Positions 3,115 through 59,878 of a stretch of DNA of 64,000 nucleotides are shown one piece after another. The DNA lies in assembly GCA_041649675.1 (NCBI GenBank), contig JBAZMQ010000002.1:65920-129919 (forward strand), in the 5' to 3' direction. The DNA is from Patescibacteria group bacterium (GTDB taxonomy: Bacteria; Patescibacteriota; Patescibacteriia; Buchananbacterales; UBA6539). The notes beneath the pieces were generated by a model. That model was not told the origin of the DNA and made no database searches. It saw nothing but the letters and a program-made list of their open reading frames with translations. How positions within the stretch are numbered: position 1 is the first letter of the stretch; the number at the start of each line of letters is the position of its first letter. The translations under genes were made by a program, and so were the position numbers.

Positions 3115-3261
3115 GTTTGTTTCTCCCTTCGGAAACCTATGTTTGCCACTGCTCTCCGTGGCTCGAGATTTTCTCTGAATTTCAACAATATTGGTACTAA
3201 AACAATAACATGATAATATATCATTTATTAAACCAAATGTCAATAATAAAATACCTAAAAA

Positions 3262-31399: not shown

Positions 31400-34300
31400 T
31401 TATTGGACACATTCTTCACCGCTTGGACAGTCATCTTTGTTATCACAACCAATAGCTGTAGTCGTCTTGCAATGACGGCAAGGAATTGCACTCTTAGAAC
31501 CGTTGCAACAGTAAGGTTCAGTTCGACTAACCTGGCAACAACTGCCTGGATTGCTTGCTAAATCACAAAAGTTAATACAATGTTGACCAACGGGGCAATC
31601 CAAGTCACCAGTACAGGCTAAATTAGTTGTGGCGCTGCAATGGGTATAAGAATCACAAGTTTCACCAGTCGGACAATCACTATTCAAATTACAAGCTGTA
31701 GTTTTAGTTAAGTTGCAATTACCATTCAAAGCCTTTGGACCTTCGGAAGGCAAATAACAATTTTGATAGACATCCTGAATACCAGAACCAATCTCCGTAC
31801 CGTAATCAGTTACTTCAGCCAGTTTGGTATGGAAAAGTAAAGTCTGAGTTCGGTCGGCGTAAGTATCAAGCGGCGGCAAATCAATATCGCGTTTACCTAC
31901 CCACCAACCGACTTGAAAAGTAGATGGATTAACCAAGGTAACATAACGTTTATTCAAACAACGTTTAGAACCACAATCACTGTTTTGTTCACAAAAAGTC
32001 TGGGTGGTCTCATTTTTACATTTATTATCCTGGCAAGTCTCGCCCTGCTTGGTGTTACAGTCCTTACTTTCTGTACTCGGGTCACAATAGCAATAGCCAT
32101 CGCGATAGTTACTGCCGGATTTGAGAGTGCTGCTCATCATTACCTGATCAAAAGCCGCTTCAACCGGTAAAGTTAAGCTGACGCCATTGGCCGCAATGTT
32201 TGGACCAACCGAGACTAGATTGGCTGGTGTTAATTTAAGACCTTTGTTGATGAAAAAATACCAAATTAAATCATCACCTTGAGAGTCAGGCAAATTAACA
32301 CACTTATTGCCACTGCCACAGGTACTATCACTAGAACAATATTTTGTCTGATCGTTGGAACAGACTTTGTTTAAGGCATAAGCCGGCTTGCCGCTTTGGT
32401 TGCCGATTTCCGTATTAACATCAATGTAACCCGGACCTTCAGCCCGACCAAAAATACTGCCGCTAGCCATGGCATAAATATTATTATTACCGTTAAAAGA
32501 ATTATTGGCGGCATCAGTTAAACCGCCGGCTGGATTTGCCGCCTGCGGATAAAAAGCATTTACCGTATCCGGTGCGGTACCAAAAACTCCCTGACAAACT
32601 TTGCTGCCGTCTGCTGCGGCCACACAAGTGGTAAAACCAGGGTCAGTACATTTCTTTTCAGCATCATCACAATCCTTTAATTTACCGGCCTTAATAAAGA
32701 CTCGGTATTTGGTGGCGTCAATATCAGCCAGCGCCGGCAAACAATAAACCTTATCGCCGCAGGAATTTTTTACTGATTCACAGCTACCACCGCCACAAGT
32801 TAAAGACTCACTGCAAGCTTGACCATCTTTGGTTCCGCCGTAGCAAATCTTGCATTGATTTTCTGGAATAAATTCAACTGTTTGGTATTGATTACTGACT
32901 AAAAATTTACCGGCCACATCGGTCCAGGTTGGAGTTTGGGTCGGATTAGAATTACTGTTATATTGGACTTTAATTGCTGTTCCGGCTTGAGCCGCAATCG
33001 GATCAATTGGTTCATTAAAATCAATAGTAATAATTGTATTTCTTGGTTTATCAGCCGCGTCGTTGGCTGTAGAATTCAATTCTGAGTCACTGCCAATAGT
33101 AGTGCTGATTGTTGCCCAATCAGCCCCGCTTGGCTTAGTATCAACCATAAAATTACCAGCATGACCAATAATGCCTGATGTCAAAGTGACTTTATTGCCA
33201 TCAAGTACCGCGGTGATTGGCGGCGTCAGGCTGTCAGCTGCGATTTTTTTCTGAATATTTCCAGCGGTAACAGCTGGCGCACCAACGGCAATATCAGTGC
33301 CAAAAGTGTAAACTTTATTAGCAATCCGTAAACCATCTGGCTGGGTAAAAGATGTTAAGGTTACTTCCCATTGATCAGCGCCATTACTAGGATTAATAAA
33401 GGATAAGGTAATTCCATCGCCTAAAGTTAAGGTGTTATTAGCGATAGTGTAGCTAGACGGTGCCCCGTCGCGAAGGGGCGACCAAGTGGCCGCAGCGCTG
33501 GTTTTAGTCGCTCCACTATTTAGCAACAAAGTAACCTTTCCGTTATAAGTACCATTATAATTACCATTAGTCACAATTTTTGGCATCGCACTTGGACTTT
33601 CACCATCCATGTTGGCGGCACTACAAGCCGGGTCAGCCATATCAATTTTGCCATTACTATTATTATCAATTCCATCCGCGCAGGCATAAGTTGGCGCTCT
33701 TCTAACAGCACTAACCGTAGCGCCACTATAAGTCCTGGGAGTACCAGTAATAGTAATTTGGGCTATGGCCGCAGTGCCAATAGTGGCAGAATACTTGTCA
33801 GCTTCATTATCCGGCTGCGGAAAAACACCACTGTTTTCAACTGGGTCTAAATCTAGGTGAGTGCCAATTTCAAACCGCCACATGAAATAATTACTACTGC
33901 CAGGAAATGCCGTATCACCATTATCTTTCTTTACTCCATTACCTAATTTGACAGCATACCAAACATTATTAGTGCCATCACCCAAATACTGAACGGGTTG
34001 GAAAGTAAAGGTTAAGCCGTCAACACTAGAGGCACTAACATTGGTTAATTTATTCTTATCAATTTCGGCTTCTGACAGTTTATAAATATAAGGATAAATC
34101 TTGACATTATCAGCATTCACTAAACCAGAACAAGGGGCAGCCACGCTGCAAGCTTCTGCCGCCTCTTTAATCAAAGTATCCGGTTTCATTTTGACTTTGA
34201 AAGTCACCATGATTTTGGTATTTCTGGCAACATCACGGGCTAACGGCAACGGATAAACACTTTGGATGATTCCATTGCCTAAGTGACCGCAGTTTTCGCA

Positions 34301-34729
34301 GCCAATCGGCGGCTGGACAGTACCACCCGGACCACCCGGACGAAAGCTGTCTTGAAGCATATTAATAATAAAGCTAACGATACTGAAGGCTGAAAAAATA
34401 ATTAGCAAACCAATGGCCGCATTACGTAAAATCCGTTTGGCTTGATCAATTTTTTCAGCGTTGCCAGCTGAAGTCATCCAAATATAGCCGGCATAAATGA
34501 TGATTACAATAGCAATAATGCCAACTAAGCCCAAAAAGATTTGGATAATCCTCATGATGGTCACCCTGATGTCTTGAGTGCTTAAGCCAGTGGCCGTGCC
34601 GTAACTTAAACCGGTGTCTAAAGCGGCCCAAACCGGAGAAACCAACATTAAAAATAAAACTACCAGTCCAAAAATAAGCATGGTAGTTCTATTTCTCTGG
34701 GAACTGAAAAAGTTTTTTTGTTTATTCAT
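31400..34729 (-). CDS. large (1109 aa) surface protein with the same pilin-like N-terminal domain (paralog of the giant gene's N-terminus) and a Cys-rich C-terminus
   Basis: N-terminus AALDTGLSYGTATGLSTQDIRVTIMRIIQIFLGLVGIIAIVIIIYAGYIWMTSAGNAEKIDQAKRILRNAAIGLLIIFSAF mirrors the giant protein. MopE-like CADGIDNNSNGKIDMADPAC motif present. SD GGGAG 8 nt upstream of the ATG. 21-nt gap to the giant gene. Confidence 0.8.
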   Translation of the reverse strand: MNKQKNFFSSQRNRTTMLIFGLVVLFLMLVSPVWAALDTGLSYGTATGLSTQDIRVTIMRIIQIFLGLVGIIAIVIIIYAGYIWMTSAGNAEKIDQAKRILRNAAIGLLIIFSAFSIVSFIINMLQDSFRPGGPGGTVQPPIGCENCGHLGNGIIQSVYPLPLARDVARNTKIMVTFKVKMKPDTLIKEAAEACSVAAPCSGLVNADNVKIYPYIYKLSEAEIDKNKLTNVSASSVDGLTFTFQPVQYLGDGTNNVWYAVKLGNGVKKDNGDTAFPGSSNYFMWRFEIGTHLDLDPVENSGVFPQPDNEADKYSATIGTAAIAQITITGTPRTYSGATVSAVRRAPTYACADGIDNNSNGKIDMADPACSAANMDGESPSAMPKIVTNGNYNGTYNGKVTLLLNSGATKTSAAATWSPLRDGAPSSYTIANNTLTLGDGITLSFINPSNGADQWEVTLTSFTQPDGLRIANKVYTFGTDIAVGAPAVTAGNIQKKIAADSLTPPITAVLDGNKVTLTSGIIGHAGNFMVDTKPSGADWATISTTIGSDSELNSTANDAADKPRNTIITIDFNEPIDPIAAQAGTAIKVQYNSNSNPTQTPTWTDVAGKFLVSNQYQTVEFIPENQCKICYGGTKDGQACSESLTCGGGSCESVKNSCGDKVYCLPALADIDATKYRVFIKAGKLKDCDDAEKKCTDPGFTTCVAAADGSKVCQGVFGTAPDTVNAFYPQAANPAGGLTDAANNSFNGNNNIYAMASGSIFGRAEGPGYIDVNTEIGNQSGKPAYALNKVCSNDQTKYCSSDSTCGSGNKCVNLPDSQGDDLIWYFFINKGLKLTPANLVSVGPNIAANGVSLTLPVEAAFDQVMMSSTLKSGSNYRDGYCYCDPSTESKDCNTKQGETCQDNKCKNETTQTFCEQNSDCGSKRCLNKRYVTLVNPSTFQVGWWVGKRDIDLPPLDTYADRTQTLLFHTKLAEVTDYGTEIGSGIQDVYQNCYLPSEGPKALNGNCNLTKTTACNLNSDCPTGETCDSYTHCSATTNLACTGDLDCPVGQHCINFCDLASNPGSCCQVSRTEPYCCNGSKSAIPCRHCKTTTAIGCDNKDDCPSGEECVQ

Positions 34730-37589: not shown

Positions 37590-37673
37590 TTTTTTAGAAT
37601 TACGAATTATGAATTATGAATAAGGGAAGGAATGACCTGCCTAATTCCTAATTCTTAATTCCTAATTCTTTCT

Positions 37674-42074: not shown

Positions 42075-42647
42075 ATGAAATTAATTGTCGGCTTAGGCAA
42101 TCCAGATACAAAATACCAAGACACTTGGCATAATGTTGGCTTTATTATGATTGATAAAATTCAAGCCCATAAGCCTCAAGAATTTCTAACCTGTAAAAAT
42201 AACAAAAAATTTCAAGCCGCAATTTGCGAAGGTATGAGCCCGGAAGAAAAAATAATTTTAGTCAAACCTCAAACCTATATGAATAATTCCGGCCAAGCCG
42301 TTAGTGCTTTGGTTAATTTCTACAAAATTCAGCTGTCCGATCTCTGGGTTATTCATGACGACATCGATTTACCCTTAGGTAATATCCGAATTTCCCAAAA
42401 TGCTTCAGCCGCGGGCCATAAAGGCGTGCAATCAATCATTGACCACTTGGGCTCAAAAGATTTTGTCCGTTTCCGAATTGGCATTCAACCCCAGCATTCC
42501 GTTCAAATACCAACCGAAGCTTACGTCTTGCAAAAAATGGATAAAGAAGCTAAAGTAATCATTGATGACGTTTCTCAAGAAATAATTTCGGCCATTGAAG
42601 TTTGCCTAGCTCAAGGAGTTACGGACGCGATGAACGAATTCAATTAA
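42075..42647 (+). CDS. pth: peptidyl-tRNA hydrolase
   Basis: MKLIVGLGNP...YQDTWHNVGF...NNSGQAV...HDD.DLPLG signature. Confidence 0.9.
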   Translation: MKLIVGLGNPDTKYQDTWHNVGFIMIDKIQAHKPQEFLTCKNNKKFQAAICEGMSPEEKIILVKPQTYMNNSGQAVSALVNFYKIQLSDLWVIHDDIDLPLGNIRISQNASAAGHKGVQSIIDHLGSKDFVRFRIGIQPQHSVQIPTEAYVLQKMDKEAKVIIDDVSQEIISAIEVCLAQGVTDAMNEFN

Positions 42648-42675
42648 AATTTAAAATTAAAAGTAATCAACATAG

Positions 42676-42699
42676 CGCACTAATTTTAAGTGCGTTTTT
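42676..42699 (+). terminator. rho-independent terminator after pth (CGCACT-aatttta-AGTGCG + TTTTT)
   Basis: 6-bp stem, 7-nt loop, 5-T run ending immediately before the ATG at 42700. Confidence 0.5.
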
Positions 42700-43098
42700 A
42701 TGTTAAACCAAGAATCAACCAAAAACTTAAAACCCAAAAGTCAAAACCACAACTTAAATCTTAAAACCAGGTGCTTTATCTTTTCTATTAAAATTATAAA
42801 ACTAACAGAAAAGCTGCCTCCAAAAAAATGTTACTGGATAATCGCTGACCAACTAATCAGATCAGCCACTAGTATTGGGGCTAATATTGCCGAGGCTAAA
42901 GGCAGTAATTCAAAAAAAGACTTTACTCACTTTTATCAAATCTCCTTAAAGTCGGCCAATGAGAGTAAGTATTGGCTTAATCTTTTAATCGCCTTGACCT
43001 TAACCGATAAAGACGAATTAAAAGAACTTCTTGACGAAAATATTCAACTAGCTAATATCTTAGCCGCCAGCATTTTAACCATGAGAAACAAGAGATAA
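42700..43098 (+). CDS. four-helix-bundle protein (TIGR02436 / '23S rRNA intervening sequence protein' family), 5' end uncertain and possibly degenerate
   Basis: C-terminal 100 aa (IIKLTEKLPPKK...IADQLIRSATSIGANIAEAKGSNSKKDFTHFYQISLKSANESKYWLNLL) match the family. The annotated N-terminal 26 aa are low-complexity, are encoded by the left inverted repeat, and the ATG abuts a terminator T-run. The true N-terminus is therefore doubtful. Confidence 0.55.
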   Translation: MLNQESTKNLKPKSQNHNLNLKTRCFIFSIKIIKLTEKLPPKKCYWIIADQLIRSATSIGANIAEAKGSNSKKDFTHFYQISLKSANESKYWLNLLIALTLTDKDELKELLDENIQLANILAASILTMRNKR

Positions 43099-43140
43099 CT
43101 CCTGGTTTTGGGTTTTAAGTTTTTGGTTTTAAGATTTTAA
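42723..43140. repeat. inverted repeats flanking four-helix-bundle gene 1 (left about 42723-42778; right about 43101-43140; unit CTTAAAACC(C)AAAA)
   Basis: 42723-42744 ACCAAAAACTTAAAACCCAAAA is the exact reverse complement of 43107-43128. Confidence 0.7.
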
Positions 43141-43143
43141 AAA

Positions 43144-43280
43144 AGTAGCTTCCAAGACCCTGTCTATCAGCGTAAGGCACCGTACCGAATGCTCAGTAGA
43201 TACCTTAGCTTTTGGCTAATTGGGAGAAATAGGAGGGTTAATCTCACGTTCGCCGCTGACAAACAGGGTTTTAAAAGCTA
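43144..43280. repeat. IR-bounded structured element upstream of dprA (arms 43144-43171 and 43253-43280)
   Basis: GTAGCTTCCAAGACCCTGTCTATCAGCG and the reverse complement of CGCTGACAAACAGGGTTTTAAAAGCTAC pair at about 21/28. The 80-nt interior contains a TTAGC-ttttg-GCTAA hairpin and a purine-rich GGGAGAAATAGGAGGG tract. Confidence 0.5.
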
Positions 43281-43373
43281 CCTCAAATTAATAAAATAAC
43301 TTATCACTTTCTATCATAAATGTCAAGGGGGGCCAAAATAATGGCTAAAATATATAACTACTATCAATAATAT

Positions 43374-44483
43374 ATGAAAACAACCACTGAATTTAATAAA
43401 AATGAACTCAAATATTGGATTGCCTTTAATCAACTAACTGTAATCGGCCCCATTCGCTGGCAAAAAATTTTAAGCTATTTTCCTAATCTAAAAACTGCCT
43501 GGCAAGCACCGATTCAACAATTAATCCAAGCGGGGTTAGAAACAAAAATTGCTCAGCAGGTTAGCGAAAAGCGTCAAGGTATCACGCCAGATTTAGAATT
43601 AAAAAAAATTGAAAAACTAAACATTAAAATCGTTACTATTTTAGACGAGGCTTATCCTAAAGCGCTGAAACAAGCCTACGGCTGCCCGCCTCTGCTTTAT
43701 TATTTTGGCAATCTTGATTTAAATAATGATTATTGCCTCGCCGTTGTTGGTACGAGGAAAATTACTCCTTATGGCCAAAGAGTAACTCAGGATTTAGTTA
43801 AAGAATTAGCGGGTACCGGAATTACTATTGTTTCCGGACTAGCTTTAGGTGTTGACGCCTGTGCCCATCAAACCACTTTAGACAGTAATGGCAAAACTAT
43901 TGCGGTTTTGGGTTCGGGCTTGGATCAAATTTACCCGTCTGCCAACCGTCAGCTGGCCCAAAAAATTATTGAATCTGGTGGCGCCGTTATTTCAGAATTT
44001 CCTTTAGGCACACCGCCCTATAAATCAAACTTTCCCTTGCGCAACCGCATTATTTCGGGCTTAAGTTTAGGCACTTTAATTACTGAAGCTGGAATTAAAT
44101 CGGGAGCGTTAATCACCGGTCAATTTGCCTTGGAACAAAACCGCGAAGTTTTTGCCGTGCCGGGAAATATCTATAGTCTAACTTCAGCTGGCCCAAACCA
44201 ATTAATCAAACTGGGCGCAAAAATGGTTATTCAAGCTTCAGATATTTTGGAAACTTTAAACATTAAATCAGCGGCCAGTGCTAAACAAATCAAAGAGATT
44301 ATTCCGGAAAACGAGACGGAAAAAATGTTGTTAGAAGATTTAAACGCCGAACCGCTTCACGTTGACAAATTAGTCCAATGCACTAAACTGAATATTAGTC
44401 TCGTTAATTCCACCTTGTCGGTTTTGGAAATGAAAGGAATAATAAAAAATTTAGGTGGCCAAACTTATATTAAACTCAGATAA
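43374..44483 (+). CDS. dprA: DNA processing protein A (DprA/Smf)
   Basis: Rossmann-like DprA core GLALGVDACAHQ...GSGLDQIYP...PLRNRIISGLS. Confidence 0.85.
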   Translation: MKTTTEFNKNELKYWIAFNQLTVIGPIRWQKILSYFPNLKTAWQAPIQQLIQAGLETKIAQQVSEKRQGITPDLELKKIEKLNIKIVTILDEAYPKALKQAYGCPPLLYYFGNLDLNNDYCLAVVGTRKITPYGQRVTQDLVKELAGTGITIVSGLALGVDACAHQTTLDSNGKTIAVLGSGLDQIYPSANRQLAQKIIESGGAVISEFPLGTPPYKSNFPLRNRIISGLSLGTLITEAGIKSGALITGQFALEQNREVFAVPGNIYSLTSAGPNQLIKLGAKMVIQASDILETLNIKSAASAKQIKEIIPENETEKMLLEDLNAEPLHVDKLVQCTKLNISLVNSTLSVLEMKGIIKNLGGQTYIKLR

Positions 44484-47196: not shown

Positions 47197-47235
47197 AAAA
47201 TATTACTGTCAACATAGCGCAACCTCATAATTAAT

Positions 47236-47660
47236 CAGCTGTTAGCTTTTAGCTGATAGCTTATAGAAAGGTTAAGCTATGTACATCCAATCGTTTAAAC
47301 AATTAACTGTTTGGCAAAAATCAATTATTCTGGTTAAAGAAATTTACCTGCTCACTCGTTGTTTGCCCAAGGAAGAGTTATATGGCTTAACTAGCCAAAT
47401 GAGAAGATCGGCAGTATCTATCCCTTCCAATATTGCTGAAGGCAAGAAACGCAAAACCAAAAAAGATTTTATTCAATTTTTAAGAATCGCTGACGGTTCG
47501 GCTGCCGAGCTAGAAACTCAAGTAATGATTGCCAAAGATTTATATCCTGACCTTAACTATTCAAAAATTGAATCCTTACTCGAAGAAGTTCAAAAAATGC
47601 TGATTACAATAATTAAAAAATTGGAAACTAACTAAAAGCTATAAGCTAACAGCTACCAGC
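47236..47660. repeat. inverted repeats flanking four-helix-bundle gene 2 (left 47236-47266 CAGCTGTTAGCTTTTAGCTGATAGCTTATAG; right 47633-47660 TAAAAGCTATAAGCTAACAGCTACCAGC)
   Basis: AGCTGTTAGCTT (47237-47248) is the exact reverse complement of 47643-47654. The right arm is identical to 38950-38971. Confidence 0.7.
47279..47635 (+). CDS. four-helix-bundle protein (TIGR02436 family), full length
   Basis: 118-aa ORF; LTVWQKSIILVKEIYLLTRCLPKEELYGLTSQMRRSAVSIPSNIAEG is the canonical family N-terminus. Confidence 0.75.
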   Translation: MYIQSFKQLTVWQKSIILVKEIYLLTRCLPKEELYGLTSQMRRSAVSIPSNIAEGKKRKTKKDFIQFLRIADGSAAELETQVMIAKDLYPDLNYSKIESLLEEVQKMLITIIKKLETN

Positions 47661-47666
47661 TAACTT

Positions 47667-49907
47667 ATGAAAAACTTAGTTATCGTTGAATCACCAACGA
47701 AAGCCAAAACCATTACCAAGTTTTTAGGGACCGACTATAAAATCGAGTCCTCTTTTGGTCATATCCGCGATTTGCCAAAAAGCAAATTAGGCGTTGATGT
47801 TGATAATAATTTTGAACCGCAATATGTTATTCCGCTAAAAGCCAAGAAGCACGTCACCGAATTAAAAAAATTAGCCGAGAAAGCAAAAATGATTTACTTT
47901 GCCACTGACGAAGACCGCGAAGGTGAAGCGATTTCTTGGCATTTAGTCCAAGCTTTAAAAACGCCAAAAGACAAAATTAAAAGAATAGTTTTTCATGAAA
48001 TCACCGAACATGCAATCAAAGAGGCTTTAAAAAATCCCCGAACCATTGATTTAAACTTAGTTGATGCCCAACAAGCTCGCCGGGTTTTGGACCGCTTGGT
48101 CGGCTATCAGCTTTCGCCTTTTTTATGGAAAAAAGTTGCCCGCGGACTTTCGGCCGGTCGCGTCCAATCAGTAGCCGTTCGATTAATCGTTGAACGCGAA
48201 CGAGAAATCCAAGCCTTCAAAGAGGAAGAATATTGGAGCATTGAGGGTATTTTTTGCCAACAGGCAGTTAAAACCGGACAAAAGCCAATGGATTTTGAAG
48301 CCAAGCTTCATCAAATTGATGGAAAAATTATTGATAAATTGGAAATTAAAGATCAAAAGCACGCCGACAAAATACTAAAAGACTTAAAAGATGCCAAATA
48401 CATCGTGGCCGATATTGAGCAACGGGAAATGAAAAAAAGTCCGCTGCCGCCTTTTACCACTTCCACCCTGCAACAAGAAGCGATTAAACGTTTAGGCTTT
48501 TCGGCGAAACAAACCATGATGATTGCTCAACAGCTTTACGAAGGTATTGAATTGGGTGCTGGCGGTGCCGTTGGTTTAATTACTTACATGAGAACCGACT
48601 CGGTCAATTTAGCCGACAAATTTTTAGACGAAACTCAAGATTATATCAAAAGTCAGTTTGGCCCGACTTATACTCCGGGCAAAAGATATTATAAAGCTAA
48701 ATCAAAATTGGCCCAGGAAGCCCACGAAGCGGTCCGGCCAACTTCAATTACTAATGATCCTCAAAGCGTCAAACAATATTTAGACCCCAGACAATTCAGG
48801 CTCTATCAGCTGATTTGGCAGCGGGCTTTAGCTAGCCAAATGGCCAATGCCATTATTGATACTTCAAAAGTTGATATTTCCGCTCAAAAAACACCTTATA
48901 CTTTTCGGGCTATTGGTTCGGTAATTAAATTTGAAGGCTATCTAAAAATTTATCCTTCCGCCACCAAAGAAAATCTTTTGCCGGAATTAAAAACCAAGGA
49001 AGGTTTGGATTTAGTGTCTTTAACACCAAATCAACATTTTACCCAACCGCCGGCCCGTTATTCAGAAGCGACTTTAGTCAAAATTTTGGAAGAATATGGT
49101 ATTGGCAGGCCTTCAACTTATGCGCCAACCATTGCCACGGTTCAAGACCGCGGTTATGTGACCAAGGAAGAAAAAAGATTAAAACCAACTGACCTAGCTT
49201 TTTTGGTCAACGACCTTTTAGTCAAACACTTCCCTAATATTGTTGACTATGAATTCACGGCCAATATGGAAAACGACTTGGACGAAATTGCCGAGGGCAA
49301 AAGAAAATGGCAACCAATTATCCACGAATTTTGGGGGCCGTTCAAATCAAATTTGGATGAAAAATATAAAGAATTAGACAAACAAGAACTGACTGAAACA
49401 AAAACCGATGAGGTCTGCGAGCTTTGCGGCAAGCCAATGGTGATTAAAATCGGCCGGTTTGGTAAATTTTTGGCTTGCACCGGTTACCCGGAATGCAAAA
49501 ATACCAAACCCTTAGCCGAAGGCGGCCTTGAGCCACAAAAACCACAAGAGACTGGCGAAAAATGTCCAGAGTGCGAAAGCCCCTTGGTTAAACGCAAAGG
49601 CCGGTTTGGCGAATTTGTCGGCTGTTCAAATTATCCTAAATGTAAGTACATTAAAAAACAACCGTCTCAAGAATTCGGTACCTGTCCCAAATGCAACAAG
49701 GGAAAAATTGTTGGCAAGCGTTCCCGCCGCGGCTGGTTTTATGGTTGCAGCGCTTATCCGGATTGTAACTTTGCCTTGTGGGGTAAACCCGTAATTGCCG
49801 AGGGTAAAACTGAGCCAGAAAAATGTCCGGACTGCGGCTCAATTTTAGTTCACGCCAAAGAAGATCAGATAAAGTGCAGTAGTAAAGAATGCAAATATAA
49901 ACAATAA
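47667..49907 (+). CDS. topA: DNA topoisomerase I with C-terminal zinc-ribbon repeats
   Basis: Toprim N-terminus MKNLVIVESPTKAKTI..., a type IA core, and four C4 zinc-ribbon modules at the C-terminus. Confidence 0.95.
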   Translation: MKNLVIVESPTKAKTITKFLGTDYKIESSFGHIRDLPKSKLGVDVDNNFEPQYVIPLKAKKHVTELKKLAEKAKMIYFATDEDREGEAISWHLVQALKTPKDKIKRIVFHEITEHAIKEALKNPRTIDLNLVDAQQARRVLDRLVGYQLSPFLWKKVARGLSAGRVQSVAVRLIVEREREIQAFKEEEYWSIEGIFCQQAVKTGQKPMDFEAKLHQIDGKIIDKLEIKDQKHADKILKDLKDAKYIVADIEQREMKKSPLPPFTTSTLQQEAIKRLGFSAKQTMMIAQQLYEGIELGAGGAVGLITYMRTDSVNLADKFLDETQDYIKSQFGPTYTPGKRYYKAKSKLAQEAHEAVRPTSITNDPQSVKQYLDPRQFRLYQLIWQRALASQMANAIIDTSKVDISAQKTPYTFRAIGSVIKFEGYLKIYPSATKENLLPELKTKEGLDLVSLTPNQHFTQPPARYSEATLVKILEEYGIGRPSTYAPTIATVQDRGYVTKEEKRLKPTDLAFLVNDLLVKHFPNIVDYEFTANMENDLDEIAEGKRKWQPIIHEFWGPFKSNLDEKYKELDKQELTETKTDEVCELCGKPMVIKIGRFGKFLACTGYPECKNTKPLAEGGLEPQKPQETGEKCPECESPLVKRKGRFGEFVGCSNYPKCKYIKKQPSQEFGTCPKCNKGKIVGKRSRRGWFYGCSAYPDCNFALWGKPVIAEGKTEPEKCPDCGSILVHAKEDQIKCSSKECKYKQ

Positions 49908-53864: not shown

Positions 53865-54635
53865 TTAAATATAATTTTCTTGTAAGATAATTTCCCGGGC
53901 CAAATCTTCATAAGCTTTGCCACCAGCCGAACGCGGATCGTATGACAAAATTGTTTGGCCAAAACTTGGTGATTCGGTCAAACGAACATTTCGGGGAACA
54001 ATGGTATCAAAAACGCGATGGGGAAAATGTTGCTTGAGCTCGTTTAAAACCTGACTTGAAAGTTTATTGCGCTTATCATACATCGTCACTACCGCTCCCA
54101 AAATGTTTAATTCCGGTTTTAAATTTTCTTTAACCAAACTGATGGTATTGAGCAGTTGGCCTAAGCCCTCTAGCGCCAAATATTCGGCCTGAACCGGCAC
54201 TAATACTTCTTCGGCTGCCACCAAACCGTTTAAAGTTAACAAGTCCAATGATGGCGGACAATCAATCAAAATATAGTCATAGTCATGTTTAACCTCAAGC
54301 ATGGTTTGAGCCAACCGAAATTCCCGATTTTCCAAGCCTACTAGCTCCACCCTGGCCCCAGCCAAATCCGGTGTGGCCGGTGCCACCTTGTAGCCCTGGT
54401 GATTAGTACCTTGAATAATTTGCCTGAAAGAGATTGGCTCAACTAAAGAGTGATATACTCCCTTTTCTAGGCTTGAGTGGTCAATACCCAGCCCGGAAGT
54501 GGCATTAGCCTGTGGGTCAATGTCAACTAATAAAACAAACTTACCTAACCAAGCCAGATAAGCCCCTAAATTGACAGCGGTGGTGGTTTTACCAACTCCC
54601 CCTTTTTGATTGACAATTGCAATGGTTCTCGACAT
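53865..54635 (-). CDS. parA: chromosome partitioning ATPase ParA/Soj
   Basis: Deviant Walker A KGGVGKTTTAVNLGAYLA. Confidence 0.9.
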   Translation of the reverse strand: MSRTIAIVNQKGGVGKTTTAVNLGAYLAWLGKFVLLVDIDPQANATSGLGIDHSSLEKGVYHSLVEPISFRQIIQGTNHQGYKVAPATPDLAGARVELVGLENREFRLAQTMLEVKHDYDYILIDCPPSLDLLTLNGLVAAEEVLVPVQAEYLALEGLGQLLNTISLVKENLKPELNILGAVVTMYDKRNKLSSQVLNELKQHFPHRVFDTIVPRNVRLTESPSFGQTILSYDPRSAGGKAYEDLAREIILQENYI

Positions 54636-58402: not shown

Positions 58403-58480
58403 AAAAAAATAAAACTTAAAAGCAAAATCTTAAAACCCAAAAACTTTTAAGCTTTATGCTGTAGTTTTTGACTTTGGGCT

Positions 58481-59878
58481 TTAACTTTTAAATTTTTCCT
58501 CAAAATATTTTTTAATTTCTGAAATTTTAATTCTTTCCTGGCCCATCGTATCCCGATTCCTGACAGTTACTGCTTTATCTTCAATCGTTTCAAAATCAAC
58601 GGTCACGCAATAAGGCGTGCCAATTTCATCTTGCCGCCGGTAACGCTTGCCGATTGAGCCGGTCTCGTCATACTGGCAAAGCCATTGGCCGCGCAATTGA
58701 TCAAGAACTGCCTGAGTGGCTTTTTGCAACTCGGGCTTTTTTGAAAGCGGTAAAACCGCAATTTTTATCGGCGCAATTTTAGAATTAAATTTTAAGACTA
58801 CTTCAATATCTTTTATACTTTCAGTCGTAGTCGATCGGCCACCACTGATTTCCGTATAGGCATCCAATAAAAACATTAACGTTGCTCGGTCAGCCCCGGC
58901 TGAAGTTTCTATAATATAAGGATAAAATTTTTCGCCTGACTCCGAGTCGGTATATTTCAAATCTTGGCCCGAATATTCAGCGTGACGTGACAAATCCCAA
59001 TCGCCGCGGTGATGAATACCTTCCAATTCTTTCCAACCAAAAGGTGTTTGGTATTCAATATCCATAGCTTTCTTAGCATAGTGAGCCAATTCATCTTTAC
59101 CGTGTTCGCGGAAACGCAAATTTTCTTTTTTAATCCCTAAAGACAAATACCAATTCATCCGAACCTCTTTCCATTGATCAAAAATTTTGTCAGCCTCTTT
59201 TGGATTAACAAAATATTGCATTTCCATTTGTTCAAATTCTCGAGTCCGGAAAGTAAAATTGCCCGGCGTAATTTCGTTGCGAAAAGCCTTACCAATTTGG
59301 GCAATCCCAAACGGTAATTTCAAACGCATACTATCTTTAACATTTAAAAAATTAACATAAATTCCCTGGGCAGTTTCCGGCCGCAAATAAACAACCGAAG
59401 TCGCATCTTCCACCGGCCCCATAAAAGTCTTAAACATCAAATTGAATTGTCTGATTTCGGTTAATTCGCCGCCGCATTCCGGACACGTCTTCAATTCCAA
59501 GGGCGGTTCTTTCATCGCGCCCAAAGCTGGCTTAATGCCTTTAGCTTCCAATAGATGATCAGCCCGAAAGCGCTTTTTACATTTTTTACAATCAACTAAC
59601 GGATCGGAAAAATTTTGAACATGGCCGGAAGCTTCCCAAATCCTTGGATGCATCAAAATCGCTGAATCTAGCCCAACGACGTCGTTTCGCTGATAAACCA
59701 TTGATTGCCACCATTGGCGCTTAACATTATTTTTTAATTCCACTCCCAACGGACCGTAATCATAAAATGAGTTTAAGCCGCCATAAATTTCCGAAGACTG
59801 AAAAATAAAGCCTCTTTGCTTGCATAAAGAGACAATTTTTTCCATAAAACTATTGTCTATTTTTTTAGGTTTAGTCAT
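58481..59878 (-). CDS. glyQS: glycyl-tRNA synthetase (homodimeric alpha2 type)
   Basis: Class II motifs; N-terminal [24 protein letters not shown] is typical of GlyQS; C-terminal anticodon-binding domain. Confidence 0.9.

Follow-up and report, generated by a model that had tools for sequence, protein, structure and literature searches.

The best described relatives of the elements reported here are the intervening sequences (IVSs) of 23S rRNA genes. In Coxiella, the IVS possesses a 28-bp terminal stem, within which it is excised by ribonuclease III (RNase III), and an open reading frame (ORF) with a poor Shine-Dalgarno sequence; tandem heptamer repeats, whose number varies between strains, lie upstream of this S23p ORF (PMC4990558). 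According to the literature, ORFs of the same protein family, PF05635, also occur in rRNA insertions of bacteria of the Candidate Phyla Radiation (CPR). Both the role of the "23S rRNA IVS protein" and the origin of the rRNA IVSs have been open since the 1990s, and prior work has dealt with few rRNA copies whose ORFs are possibly dead. Here we analyzed a stretch of 64 kb (the window) on a contig of a Patescibacteria (CPR) metagenome assembly. It contains two genes of this family. Gene 1 (42700-43098, plus strand), the product of which is named "four helix bundle protein" by NCBI, is located between pth and dprA and is enclosed by complementary arms composed of 7-nt repeats. We are confident that such hairpin cassettes exist and that they form a general, turnover-prone class. 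As a whole, the data are best explained by an intact gene within a hairpin cassette, which would be an IVS-like operon insert processed by RNase III; for this complete reading our confidence is moderate.

The two cassettes of the window

A repeat search disclosed an exact inverted repeat of 23 nt around gene 1, formed by positions 42717-42739 (AACCAAAAACTTAAAACCCAAAA) and 43106-43128. The arms can also pair in shifted registers, over 14 nt with 100% (42756-42769/43124-43137) and over 28 nt with 86% agreement (42721-42748/43111-43138). By comparison, when the region 42600-43350 was shuffled 300 times with its dinucleotides preserved, exact inverted repeats reached 14 nt at most, and the next best one elsewhere in the 64 kb, analyzed in tiles of 750 nt, measured 13-14 nt. 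When the whole window was scanned for imperfect inverted repeats, the top two pairs were those surrounding the two four-helix-bundle genes, and the minimum-free-energy fold of 42660-43300 paired the arms of cassette 1 (z = -6.1). An origin of this repeat by chance or base composition is excluded. The original prediction had reported a 22-nt match between 42723-42744 and 43107-43128. The repeat as such and its right arm were given correctly, while the left arm is located approximately 6 nt further upstream and the exact match comprises 23 nt.

Both arms are tracts of tandem heptamers on the plus strand. The A-rich left arm (42705-42771, with the exact core at 42717-42739) resides within the ORF, where it covers codons 2-24, and the T-rich right arm (43099-43140, core 43106-43128) begins at the stop codon. 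For both arms of both cassettes, the best self-match was obtained at lags of 7 and 14 nt; at lag 7, it amounted to 0.57 in the left and 0.65 in the right arm of cassette 1. Thus, tandem (C)AAAA-type units, which had been recognized before, were borne out, the supposed unit of 13-14 nt being made up of two heptamers. We could also confirm that the left repeat lies inside the annotated N-terminus and renders it a low-complexity region.

Gene 1 encodes 132 amino acids, of which the first 20 form the arm-encoded tail preceding four helices. The product matched PF05635 with 91.1 bits (cutoff 33.8; profile positions 3-105 of 106) and TIGR02436 with 104.2 bits (cutoff 24; positions 3-107 of 109), and PDB entry 2RLD aligned to residues 21-130. 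An AlphaFold model based on 32 homologues (mean predicted local distance difference test score, pLDDT, 87) contained helices at residues 21-37, 43-68, 72-99 and 104-130, all with a pLDDT above 90, and disorder was limited to residues 1-17. By Foldseek, the model resembled 2RLD (BT_0352) and 2GSC (XCC0516) with target-normalised TM-scores of 0.90 and 0.86, respectively, and more distantly Avd. All ten invariant columns of the family alignment are present in gene 1. Its low-complexity tail (…KNLKPKSQNHNLNLK…) is paralleled by …SNLKSQNHNSKIK… at the equivalent place in homologues annotated as Thermodesulfovibrionales, Dehalococcoidales, Parcubacteria and Roizmanbacteria; the predicted tail is a translation of the A-rich heptamer tract of the left arm. 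Sequence and model alike indicate an intact, functional-looking member of PF05635. Previously, gene 1 had been regarded as seemingly 5'-degenerate and possibly decaying, and a family alignment had been proposed as the means to reveal a missing helix 1. In this alignment helix 1 is present and the N-terminus is intact, by which the assumption of decay is refuted.

The start of the gene deserves particular attention. The ATG at 42700 is indeed, as had been stated, the only canonical in-frame start and directly follows a T-run, which belongs to a terminator-like hairpin at 42674-42696. It is also true that no room is left for a ribosome-binding site, though this does not indicate decay: a Shine-Dalgarno core was found within 18 nt of the start in only 5 of 32 plausible genes of the window and was missing from the other 27, so that a non-canonical start need not be invoked for gene 1. 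Translation initiation in the source organism appears to proceed largely without Shine-Dalgarno sequences. For annotation this means that a gene of a PF05635 cassette should not be taken as decaying because its N-terminal tail is of low complexity or a ribosome-binding site is missing.

Gene 2 (47279-47635, plus strand; 118 amino acids; PF05635, 7e-38; TIGR02436, 1e-38) is located directly between a Mur-ligase-family gene and topA and is flanked by its own repeat. The left arm (47230-47273, plus strand, core 47237-47266) consists of AGCTNNT heptamers, and the right arm (47625-47668, plus strand) overlaps the stop codon. The inverted repeat, 47241-47266/47639-47664, comprises 26 nt with 88% agreement, ends 3 nt before the ATG of topA at 47667 and is unlike the arms of cassette 1 in sequence. 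The suggestion that both genes reside in small palindrome-bounded cassettes is strongly supported, and the comparative data given below extend it to a family-wide property with gain and loss at orthologous sites.

In addition, the window contains two ORF-less hairpins, each of which takes up the spacer between two genes of the same direction. The third-best inverted repeat, at 37596-37669 (minus strand), occupies the spacer between a signal peptidase and a GDPD gene and is composed of GAATTAN heptamers, six bases of each being paired and one skipped, which results in one mismatch every 7 nt (-27.8 kcal/mol, z = -6.0). A weaker hairpin with CTTAAAACCCAAAA-like units (58411-58496, minus strand; z = -2.4) lies between the genes for a peptidase M16 and a class II aminoacyl-tRNA synthetase.

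Distribution and turnover of the cassettes

A scan of one genome per species yielded 80 loci with homologues of gene 1, of which 76 were usable for the arm test and 71 entered the counts of period and neighbours. The homologues belonged to CPR groups, Chloroflexota, Omnitrophota, Planctomycetota, WOR-3, Zixibacteria, Atribacterota and others. Complementarity between start zone and stop zone exceeded the 95th percentile of shifted-position controls in 60 of the 76 loci (median score 16 versus 8). A point that weighs against this result is that the controls lay mostly in coding DNA, so that the A-rich and T-rich composition of the spacers could explain part of the excess. A better guard is provided by the comparison across loci, where arms scored 22 with their own partner and 16 with arms of other loci (p = 3e-15). 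This test and the long exact matches argue against an effect of composition. Since the arms fit their own partners better than foreign ones, they co-evolve within the cassette.

The arms were of rather uniform design. Typically they measured 45-60 nt, the left one being A-rich and the right one T-rich, with units such as AAAAGTC. The left arm extended at the median from -24 to +22 around the ATG and the right arm from -1 to +48 relative to the stop codon. A lag of 7 nt gave the best self-match in 57 left and 62 right arms of the 71 loci. Genes of the gene-2 type, which were met by chance in these loci, possessed heptamer arms too, with the units GAATNNN, GTATNTN and AGGGTAT (AGCTNNT in the window).

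The cassettes also share their setting. The neighbouring gene was on the same strand upstream in 66 and downstream in 65 of the 71 loci (131/142 in total), compared to 80 of 101 other adjacent gene pairs in the same loci (Fisher p = 0.003). At the median, 41 nt separated the end of the upstream gene from the ATG and 60 nt the stop codon from the next gene, indicating that the arms fill the spacers and leave no room for a separate promoter. None of the 71 genes was located in long non-coding DNA, hence none of them is an rRNA insertion. Several cassettes may lie close together: in locus L009 (2995-5474), three successive spacers of one operon each harbor a cassette, two of them with gene-1-type and one with a gene-2-type gene, separated by unrelated genes, and six further loci (L037, L038, L069, L070, L073 and L034) contain two or three copies within 6 kb. 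These data show that the module of hairpin and ORF is the normal state of the very large PF05635 family, located mostly in mRNA operons across many phyla. Phages were rejected as a vehicle, as the family is nearly absent from viral contigs (one weak match in 2.9 million).

Relatives of the window genome at the pth site were all distant, with a Pth identity of at most 65%; for this reason, clean evidence for presence and absence comes from Bacteroides. A protein 98% identical to the 2RLD chain (BT_0352) is encoded between araD and araA in the same direction as these genes. Its cassette is bounded by a 31-nt inverted repeat (97%) of AATTGAC repeats, which reaches to 3 nt from the araD stop codon and 9 nt from the araA ATG. 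The araD-araA spacer is occupied in loci L164-166, whereas it is empty in L170 and L171 (42 and 65 nt), whose AraD proteins are 95% and 91% identical. A second operon (L167-169) harbors, between an aminotransferase gene and a DAHP-synthase gene, a cassette that has these AATTGAC arms as well and encodes a protein with 80% identity. To judge from the presence or absence of PF05635 cassettes between close relatives and from the appearance of the same AATTGAC-armed cassette at different loci, they are mobile elements in the broad sense.

In L164 (2436-2499), an inverted AATTGTC tract comes directly after the left AATTGAC tract, which could thereby fold into a local 5' hairpin and would then not pair with the distal arm. 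L164 and L165, which encode identical four-helix-bundle proteins, differ in this stretch by exactly three heptamers (a 21-nt expansion). ORF-less heptamer arrays occupy the araD-araA spacer of relatives whose AraD is 87% identical. In L173 (2490-2620) and L174 (2490-2610), from other Bacteroides-like genomes, this spacer holds direct repeats of the heptamers AATTGAG, AATTTAG and AATTTTG with T-runs in between and no ORF; these arrays are possibly relics, or they belong to a repeat family of their own.

At the pth site, window and relatives have the host flanks in common, a TCAACATAGCGC hairpin with T-run after pth and a structured element before dprA, and differ in what lies between them. In L083 this is a different cassette, whose four-helix-bundle gene is of the gene-2 type and has separate arms. 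L152 harbors an ORF-less nested inverted-repeat element of GGAATTA heptamers, and L084 approximately 75 nt, part of which is possibly an arm remnant. In L097, L085, L093, L090 and L106, the structured element follows 0-55 nt after pth, in L112 after about 95 nt; L097 and L085 are devoid of an insert.

The left boundary of cassette 1 is the host 3' end of pth (42667-42699, plus strand), which lies outside the cassette and comprises the motif TCAACATAGCGCA, the hairpin mentioned above, identified by a terminator scan, and the T-run. Motif and hairpin are also found 3' of pth in L083, L084 and L152, and a second copy of TCAACATAGCGCA precedes cassette 2 (47209-47221). Though it stands upstream of both cassettes, this 13-mer was rejected as a cassette end or promoter; it is host sequence, as motif and hairpin trail pth in the relatives whatever lies downstream.

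As a separate observation, the motif TCAAYATAGCGC, mostly with a short hairpin and a T-run behind it, was met repeatedly where genes of this CPR lineage end, shortly upstream of inverted-repeat elements (window 42667-42679 and 47209-47221; L083 1413-1425; L152 ~611-622; L084 ~3124-3131; L018). No hairpin was found after the copy at cassette 2. It may represent a terminator signature peculiar to the lineage, or else a context in which insertion is favored.

The right boundary is the structured element of about 145 nt between cassette 1 and dprA (43141-43287, plus strand), likewise host sequence. It has a closing stem of 28 nt, a predicted fold with z = -3.5 and conserved CAGCGUAAGGCA and AGGAGGGUUGA motifs, and some pairs show compensatory changes in relatives. 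Directly downstream of pth it is retained in L152, L084, L097 and L085, whereas L093, L090, L112 and L106 matched more weakly. A quick covariance model yielded four further weak matches, all immediately 3' of pth and on the same strand. At gathering threshold, Rfam recognized only four tRNAs in the entire window. A search of 42600-43400 with E-values up to 10 revealed no family for the arms or the structured element, and a search with homologues of the latter gave no match.

Both cassettes reside in a co-directional housekeeping block with the order LytR-family, EngA, Pth, gene 1, DprA, HAD hydrolase, Vut_1, Mur-ligase family, gene 2 and TopA. Elsewhere, the window contains a giant ORF of approximately 6,850 codons (10814-31378, minus strand) followed by one of 1,109 codons (31400-34729); giant protein genes of this sort are known from CPR genomes. 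Moreover, a 32-nt imperfect inverted repeat (54631-54662/54750-54781; GACATGCCCCGTAGTAGAAATTTGAT…) surrounds an AT-rich stretch of about 87 nt. The repeat extends over the start codon of a ParA-like gene (53865-54635, minus strand), adjoins a cluster of three tRNA genes and could be an operator or origin-related site.

Possible roles of the arms

In the model that we favor, a cassette consists of an arm of approximately 40-65 nt made of 7-nt repeats, the ORF and a complementary arm; the start codon lies within the left arm or beside it, and the stop codon abuts the right one. Cassette 1 is inserted co-directionally between the pth terminator and the structured element upstream of dprA, and cassette 2, of the same design with unrelated arm sequences, separates the Mur-ligase-family gene from topA. 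Having no promoter of its own, the cassette would be transcribed by read-through from the host operon. In the transcript, the arms would pair to a long A-U-rich double-stranded RNA stem around the ORF, and RNase III would cut this stem as it does in rRNA IVSs. By this cut, the cistrons on either side would be separated and a short mRNA released, the AUG of which would stand at or near its new 5' end. Because it would part the cistrons and release such an mRNA, we propose that an insertion could be tolerated in tightly packed operons poor in Shine-Dalgarno sequences. Cassettes may impose processing sites inside housekeeping operons. By analogy with the rRNA IVSs, an action of the arms as an RNA stem cut by RNase III is a serious possibility, which falls somewhat short of being probable.

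Several results weigh against this model. Isolated mismatches between arms were of the G:T type in 21 and of the A:C type in 26 cases, i.e. there was no preference for G:U pairs on the sense strand, and the energies of sense and antisense duplexes were equal. Therefore, these data do not distinguish a constraint at the RNA level from one at the DNA level. Many stems are mismatched every 7 nt and thus not ideal for RNase III, and read-through into gene 1 may be limited due to the terminator-like hairpin immediately upstream. We infer the pairing of the arms in RNA and their cleavage by analogy only. As to mobility, no target-site duplication was recognizable at the boundaries that the comparison with L083, L084 and L152 had delimited, nor in the Bacteroides comparison, and no transposase or recombinase that could account for it was found among the called genes neighbouring cassettes 1 and 2. 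A search for the RNase III signature motif was negative in the window, a 64-kb fragment that is uninformative on the genome.

The alternative that survives best is an element acting at the DNA level only. The arms would then mark the ends of a non-autonomous mobile element, either as terminal inverted repeats or as single-stranded DNA that forms hairpins, and a transposase or hairpin-specific recombinase of the host would move the element in trans; the gene would be cargo and RNA pairing irrelevant. Such an element would agree with the presence and absence at orthologous sites and the two loci of the AATTGAC-armed cassette, with the different elements at the pth site, with the existence of ORF-less forms and with the absent G:U signal. 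On the other hand, the arm sequences of cassettes of one genome differ so completely that one sequence-specific transposase cannot serve them, and neither a target-site duplication nor a transposase was seen. Furthermore, a role restricted to DNA requires neither the co-orientation with neighbouring genes nor the exact fit of the arms to start and stop codons. We consider this explanation unlikely.

Even more doubtful is that the arms are bound by the protein that the cassette encodes, a proposal compatible with both the RNA-stem and the DNA-level model. A pentameric four-helix-bundle ring would read the 7-nt repeats and thereby control stem formation, translation, processing or copying. Ring proteins that read spaced repeats are known, since HutP and TRAP rings read spaced triplets. 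The 7-nt period is near-universal, although the sequence of the unit differs between cassettes, five chains are present in each of 2RLD and 2GSC, and the structural relative Avd is a pentamer in an RNA-containing retroelement complex (4DWL, 8UB7). The alternative pairing of the left arm of L164, either with the adjacent inverted copy or with the distal arm, would also suit such a control. However, the arms vary from approximately 4 to 9 repeats and do not cluster at five, so that the idea of five repeats per arm, derived from the pentamer, is unsupported by the distribution of arm lengths, and ORF-less hairpins exist without an adjacent four-helix-bundle gene. In its furthest form, PF05635 cassettes would be pan-bacterial, minimal selfish "operon inserts", whose sole encoded protein, an Avd-related pentameric four-helix bundle, would recognize its own 7-nt-repeat arms and use them to drive RNA processing, propagation or both. 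We regard this as speculative and improbable. If true, it would define a mobile or self-excising module without a recognizable transposase, integrase or ribozyme and would at the same time account for how the classical 23S rRNA IVSs arose.

It is very unlikely that the arms are ordinary intercistronic hairpins, i.e. terminators or mRNA stabilisers of an AT-rich genome, with a small gene in between by chance. Similar ORF-less hairpins in other spacers and the low complexity of the arms might suggest this. Nevertheless, the two strongest inverted repeats in 64 kb surround exactly the two four-helix-bundle genes, the association recurs in 60 of 76 loci across phyla and also in the GC-richer Bacteroides, and the arms enclose the gene instead of trailing it. 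Finally, the view that gene 1 is a decaying copy devoid of helix 1 or in need of a non-canonical start, as its low-complexity N-terminus, single ATG abutting the T-run and absent Shine-Dalgarno sequence might suggest, is scarcely credible in the face of the full profile coverage, the four predicted helices with all invariant residues, the conservation of the tail in homologues and the general scarcity of Shine-Dalgarno sequences in the window.

Comparison with known systems

Among known elements, small inverted-repeat elements such as Correia elements and other bacterial MITEs (miniature inverted-repeat transposable elements) resemble the cassettes in being small, bounded by inverted repeats, intergenic and co-transcribed with their neighbours; the ORF-less heptamer hairpins of the window resemble Correia elements as well. 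Correia elements are associated with a duplication of a TA target. Their termini are conserved within a genome and enclose no ORF, whereas the arms of the cassettes differ between copies, consist of 7-nt repeats and enclose a conserved gene. Derivation of the cassettes from a MITE or an insertion sequence was rejected, as cassette 1 has arms unrelated to those of cassette 2, no target duplication is visible at the boundaries and no transposase is located nearby. Correia elements can be bound by RNase III, with either cleavage or protection as the outcome (PMC2649163). They provide an independent precedent for small inverted-repeat elements which are co-transcribed with mRNAs and are targets of RNase III.

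With integron gene cassettes, the PF05635 cassettes have in common that they are promoter-less single-gene modules, which are co-oriented, associated with an imperfect inverted repeat (attC) and expressed from an upstream promoter. In integrons, attC is present only at the 3' end, and the cassettes are arrayed next to the integrase. The cassettes studied here differ by arms on both sides and by their occurrence as single units scattered in housekeeping operons with no integrase nearby.

A relationship also exists to Avd, the accessory protein of diversity-generating retroelements, which is distantly homologous and shares the fold (target-normalised TM-score of the gene 1 model versus 4DWL, 0.81). 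Sub-threshold matches to bAvd and DivGenRetAVD were obtained for gene 2 only (NCBIfam Avd score 22.3, cutoff 80). PF05635 is the commonest family adjoining the reverse transcriptases of these retroelements (PMC10053308). No reverse transcriptase is adjacent to gene 1, whose neighbours encode EngA, Pth, DprA, HAD hydrolase, Vut_1 and a Mur-ligase-family protein, or to gene 2, which is flanked by the latter gene and topA. A diversity-generating retroelement was rejected on this lack of an adjacent reverse transcriptase; repeats were examined locally around the cassettes, and a pair of template and variable repeats was not searched for.

The closest agreement is with the 23S rRNA IVSs. The proteins encoded by those of Leptospira, Coxiella burnetii and Brucella and by the rRNA insertions of the CPR belong to the same family, PF05635 ("S23p"). 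In both cases complementary termini form a long stem enclosing the ORF, as was predicted for cassette 1, heptamers of strain-variable number stand beside the start codon, and the Shine-Dalgarno sequence is poor or absent. The distribution is sporadic and apparently due to horizontal acquisition in both (PMC4990558; CPR report). The main difference is the location, since the cassettes occupy spacers of protein-coding operons (pth/dprA, Mur-ligase/topA, araD/araA) and not rRNA genes. Moreover, excision by RNase III has been demonstrated for rRNA IVSs and is assumed by analogy for the cassettes of mRNA operons. While the ORF of the Coxiella IVS is apparently decaying, the ORFs of the latter cassettes are conserved. 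In the literature, we found no account of inverted repeats around four-helix-bundle genes located elsewhere than in rRNA, though most subscription journals were not covered and an earlier mention is possible.

A tractable test system is offered by BT_0352, for which a crystal structure and genetic tools exist and which is located in the arabinose-inducible ara operon of Bacteroides thetaiotaomicron, known to be controlled by AraR (PMC4666351). Judged by their sequences, PF05635 cassettes have the anatomy of ORF-bearing rRNA IVSs and differ in residing in the spacers of mRNA operons. What had been an oddity of rRNA genes becomes a general class of element, and the puzzle of the IVSs is generalised accordingly.

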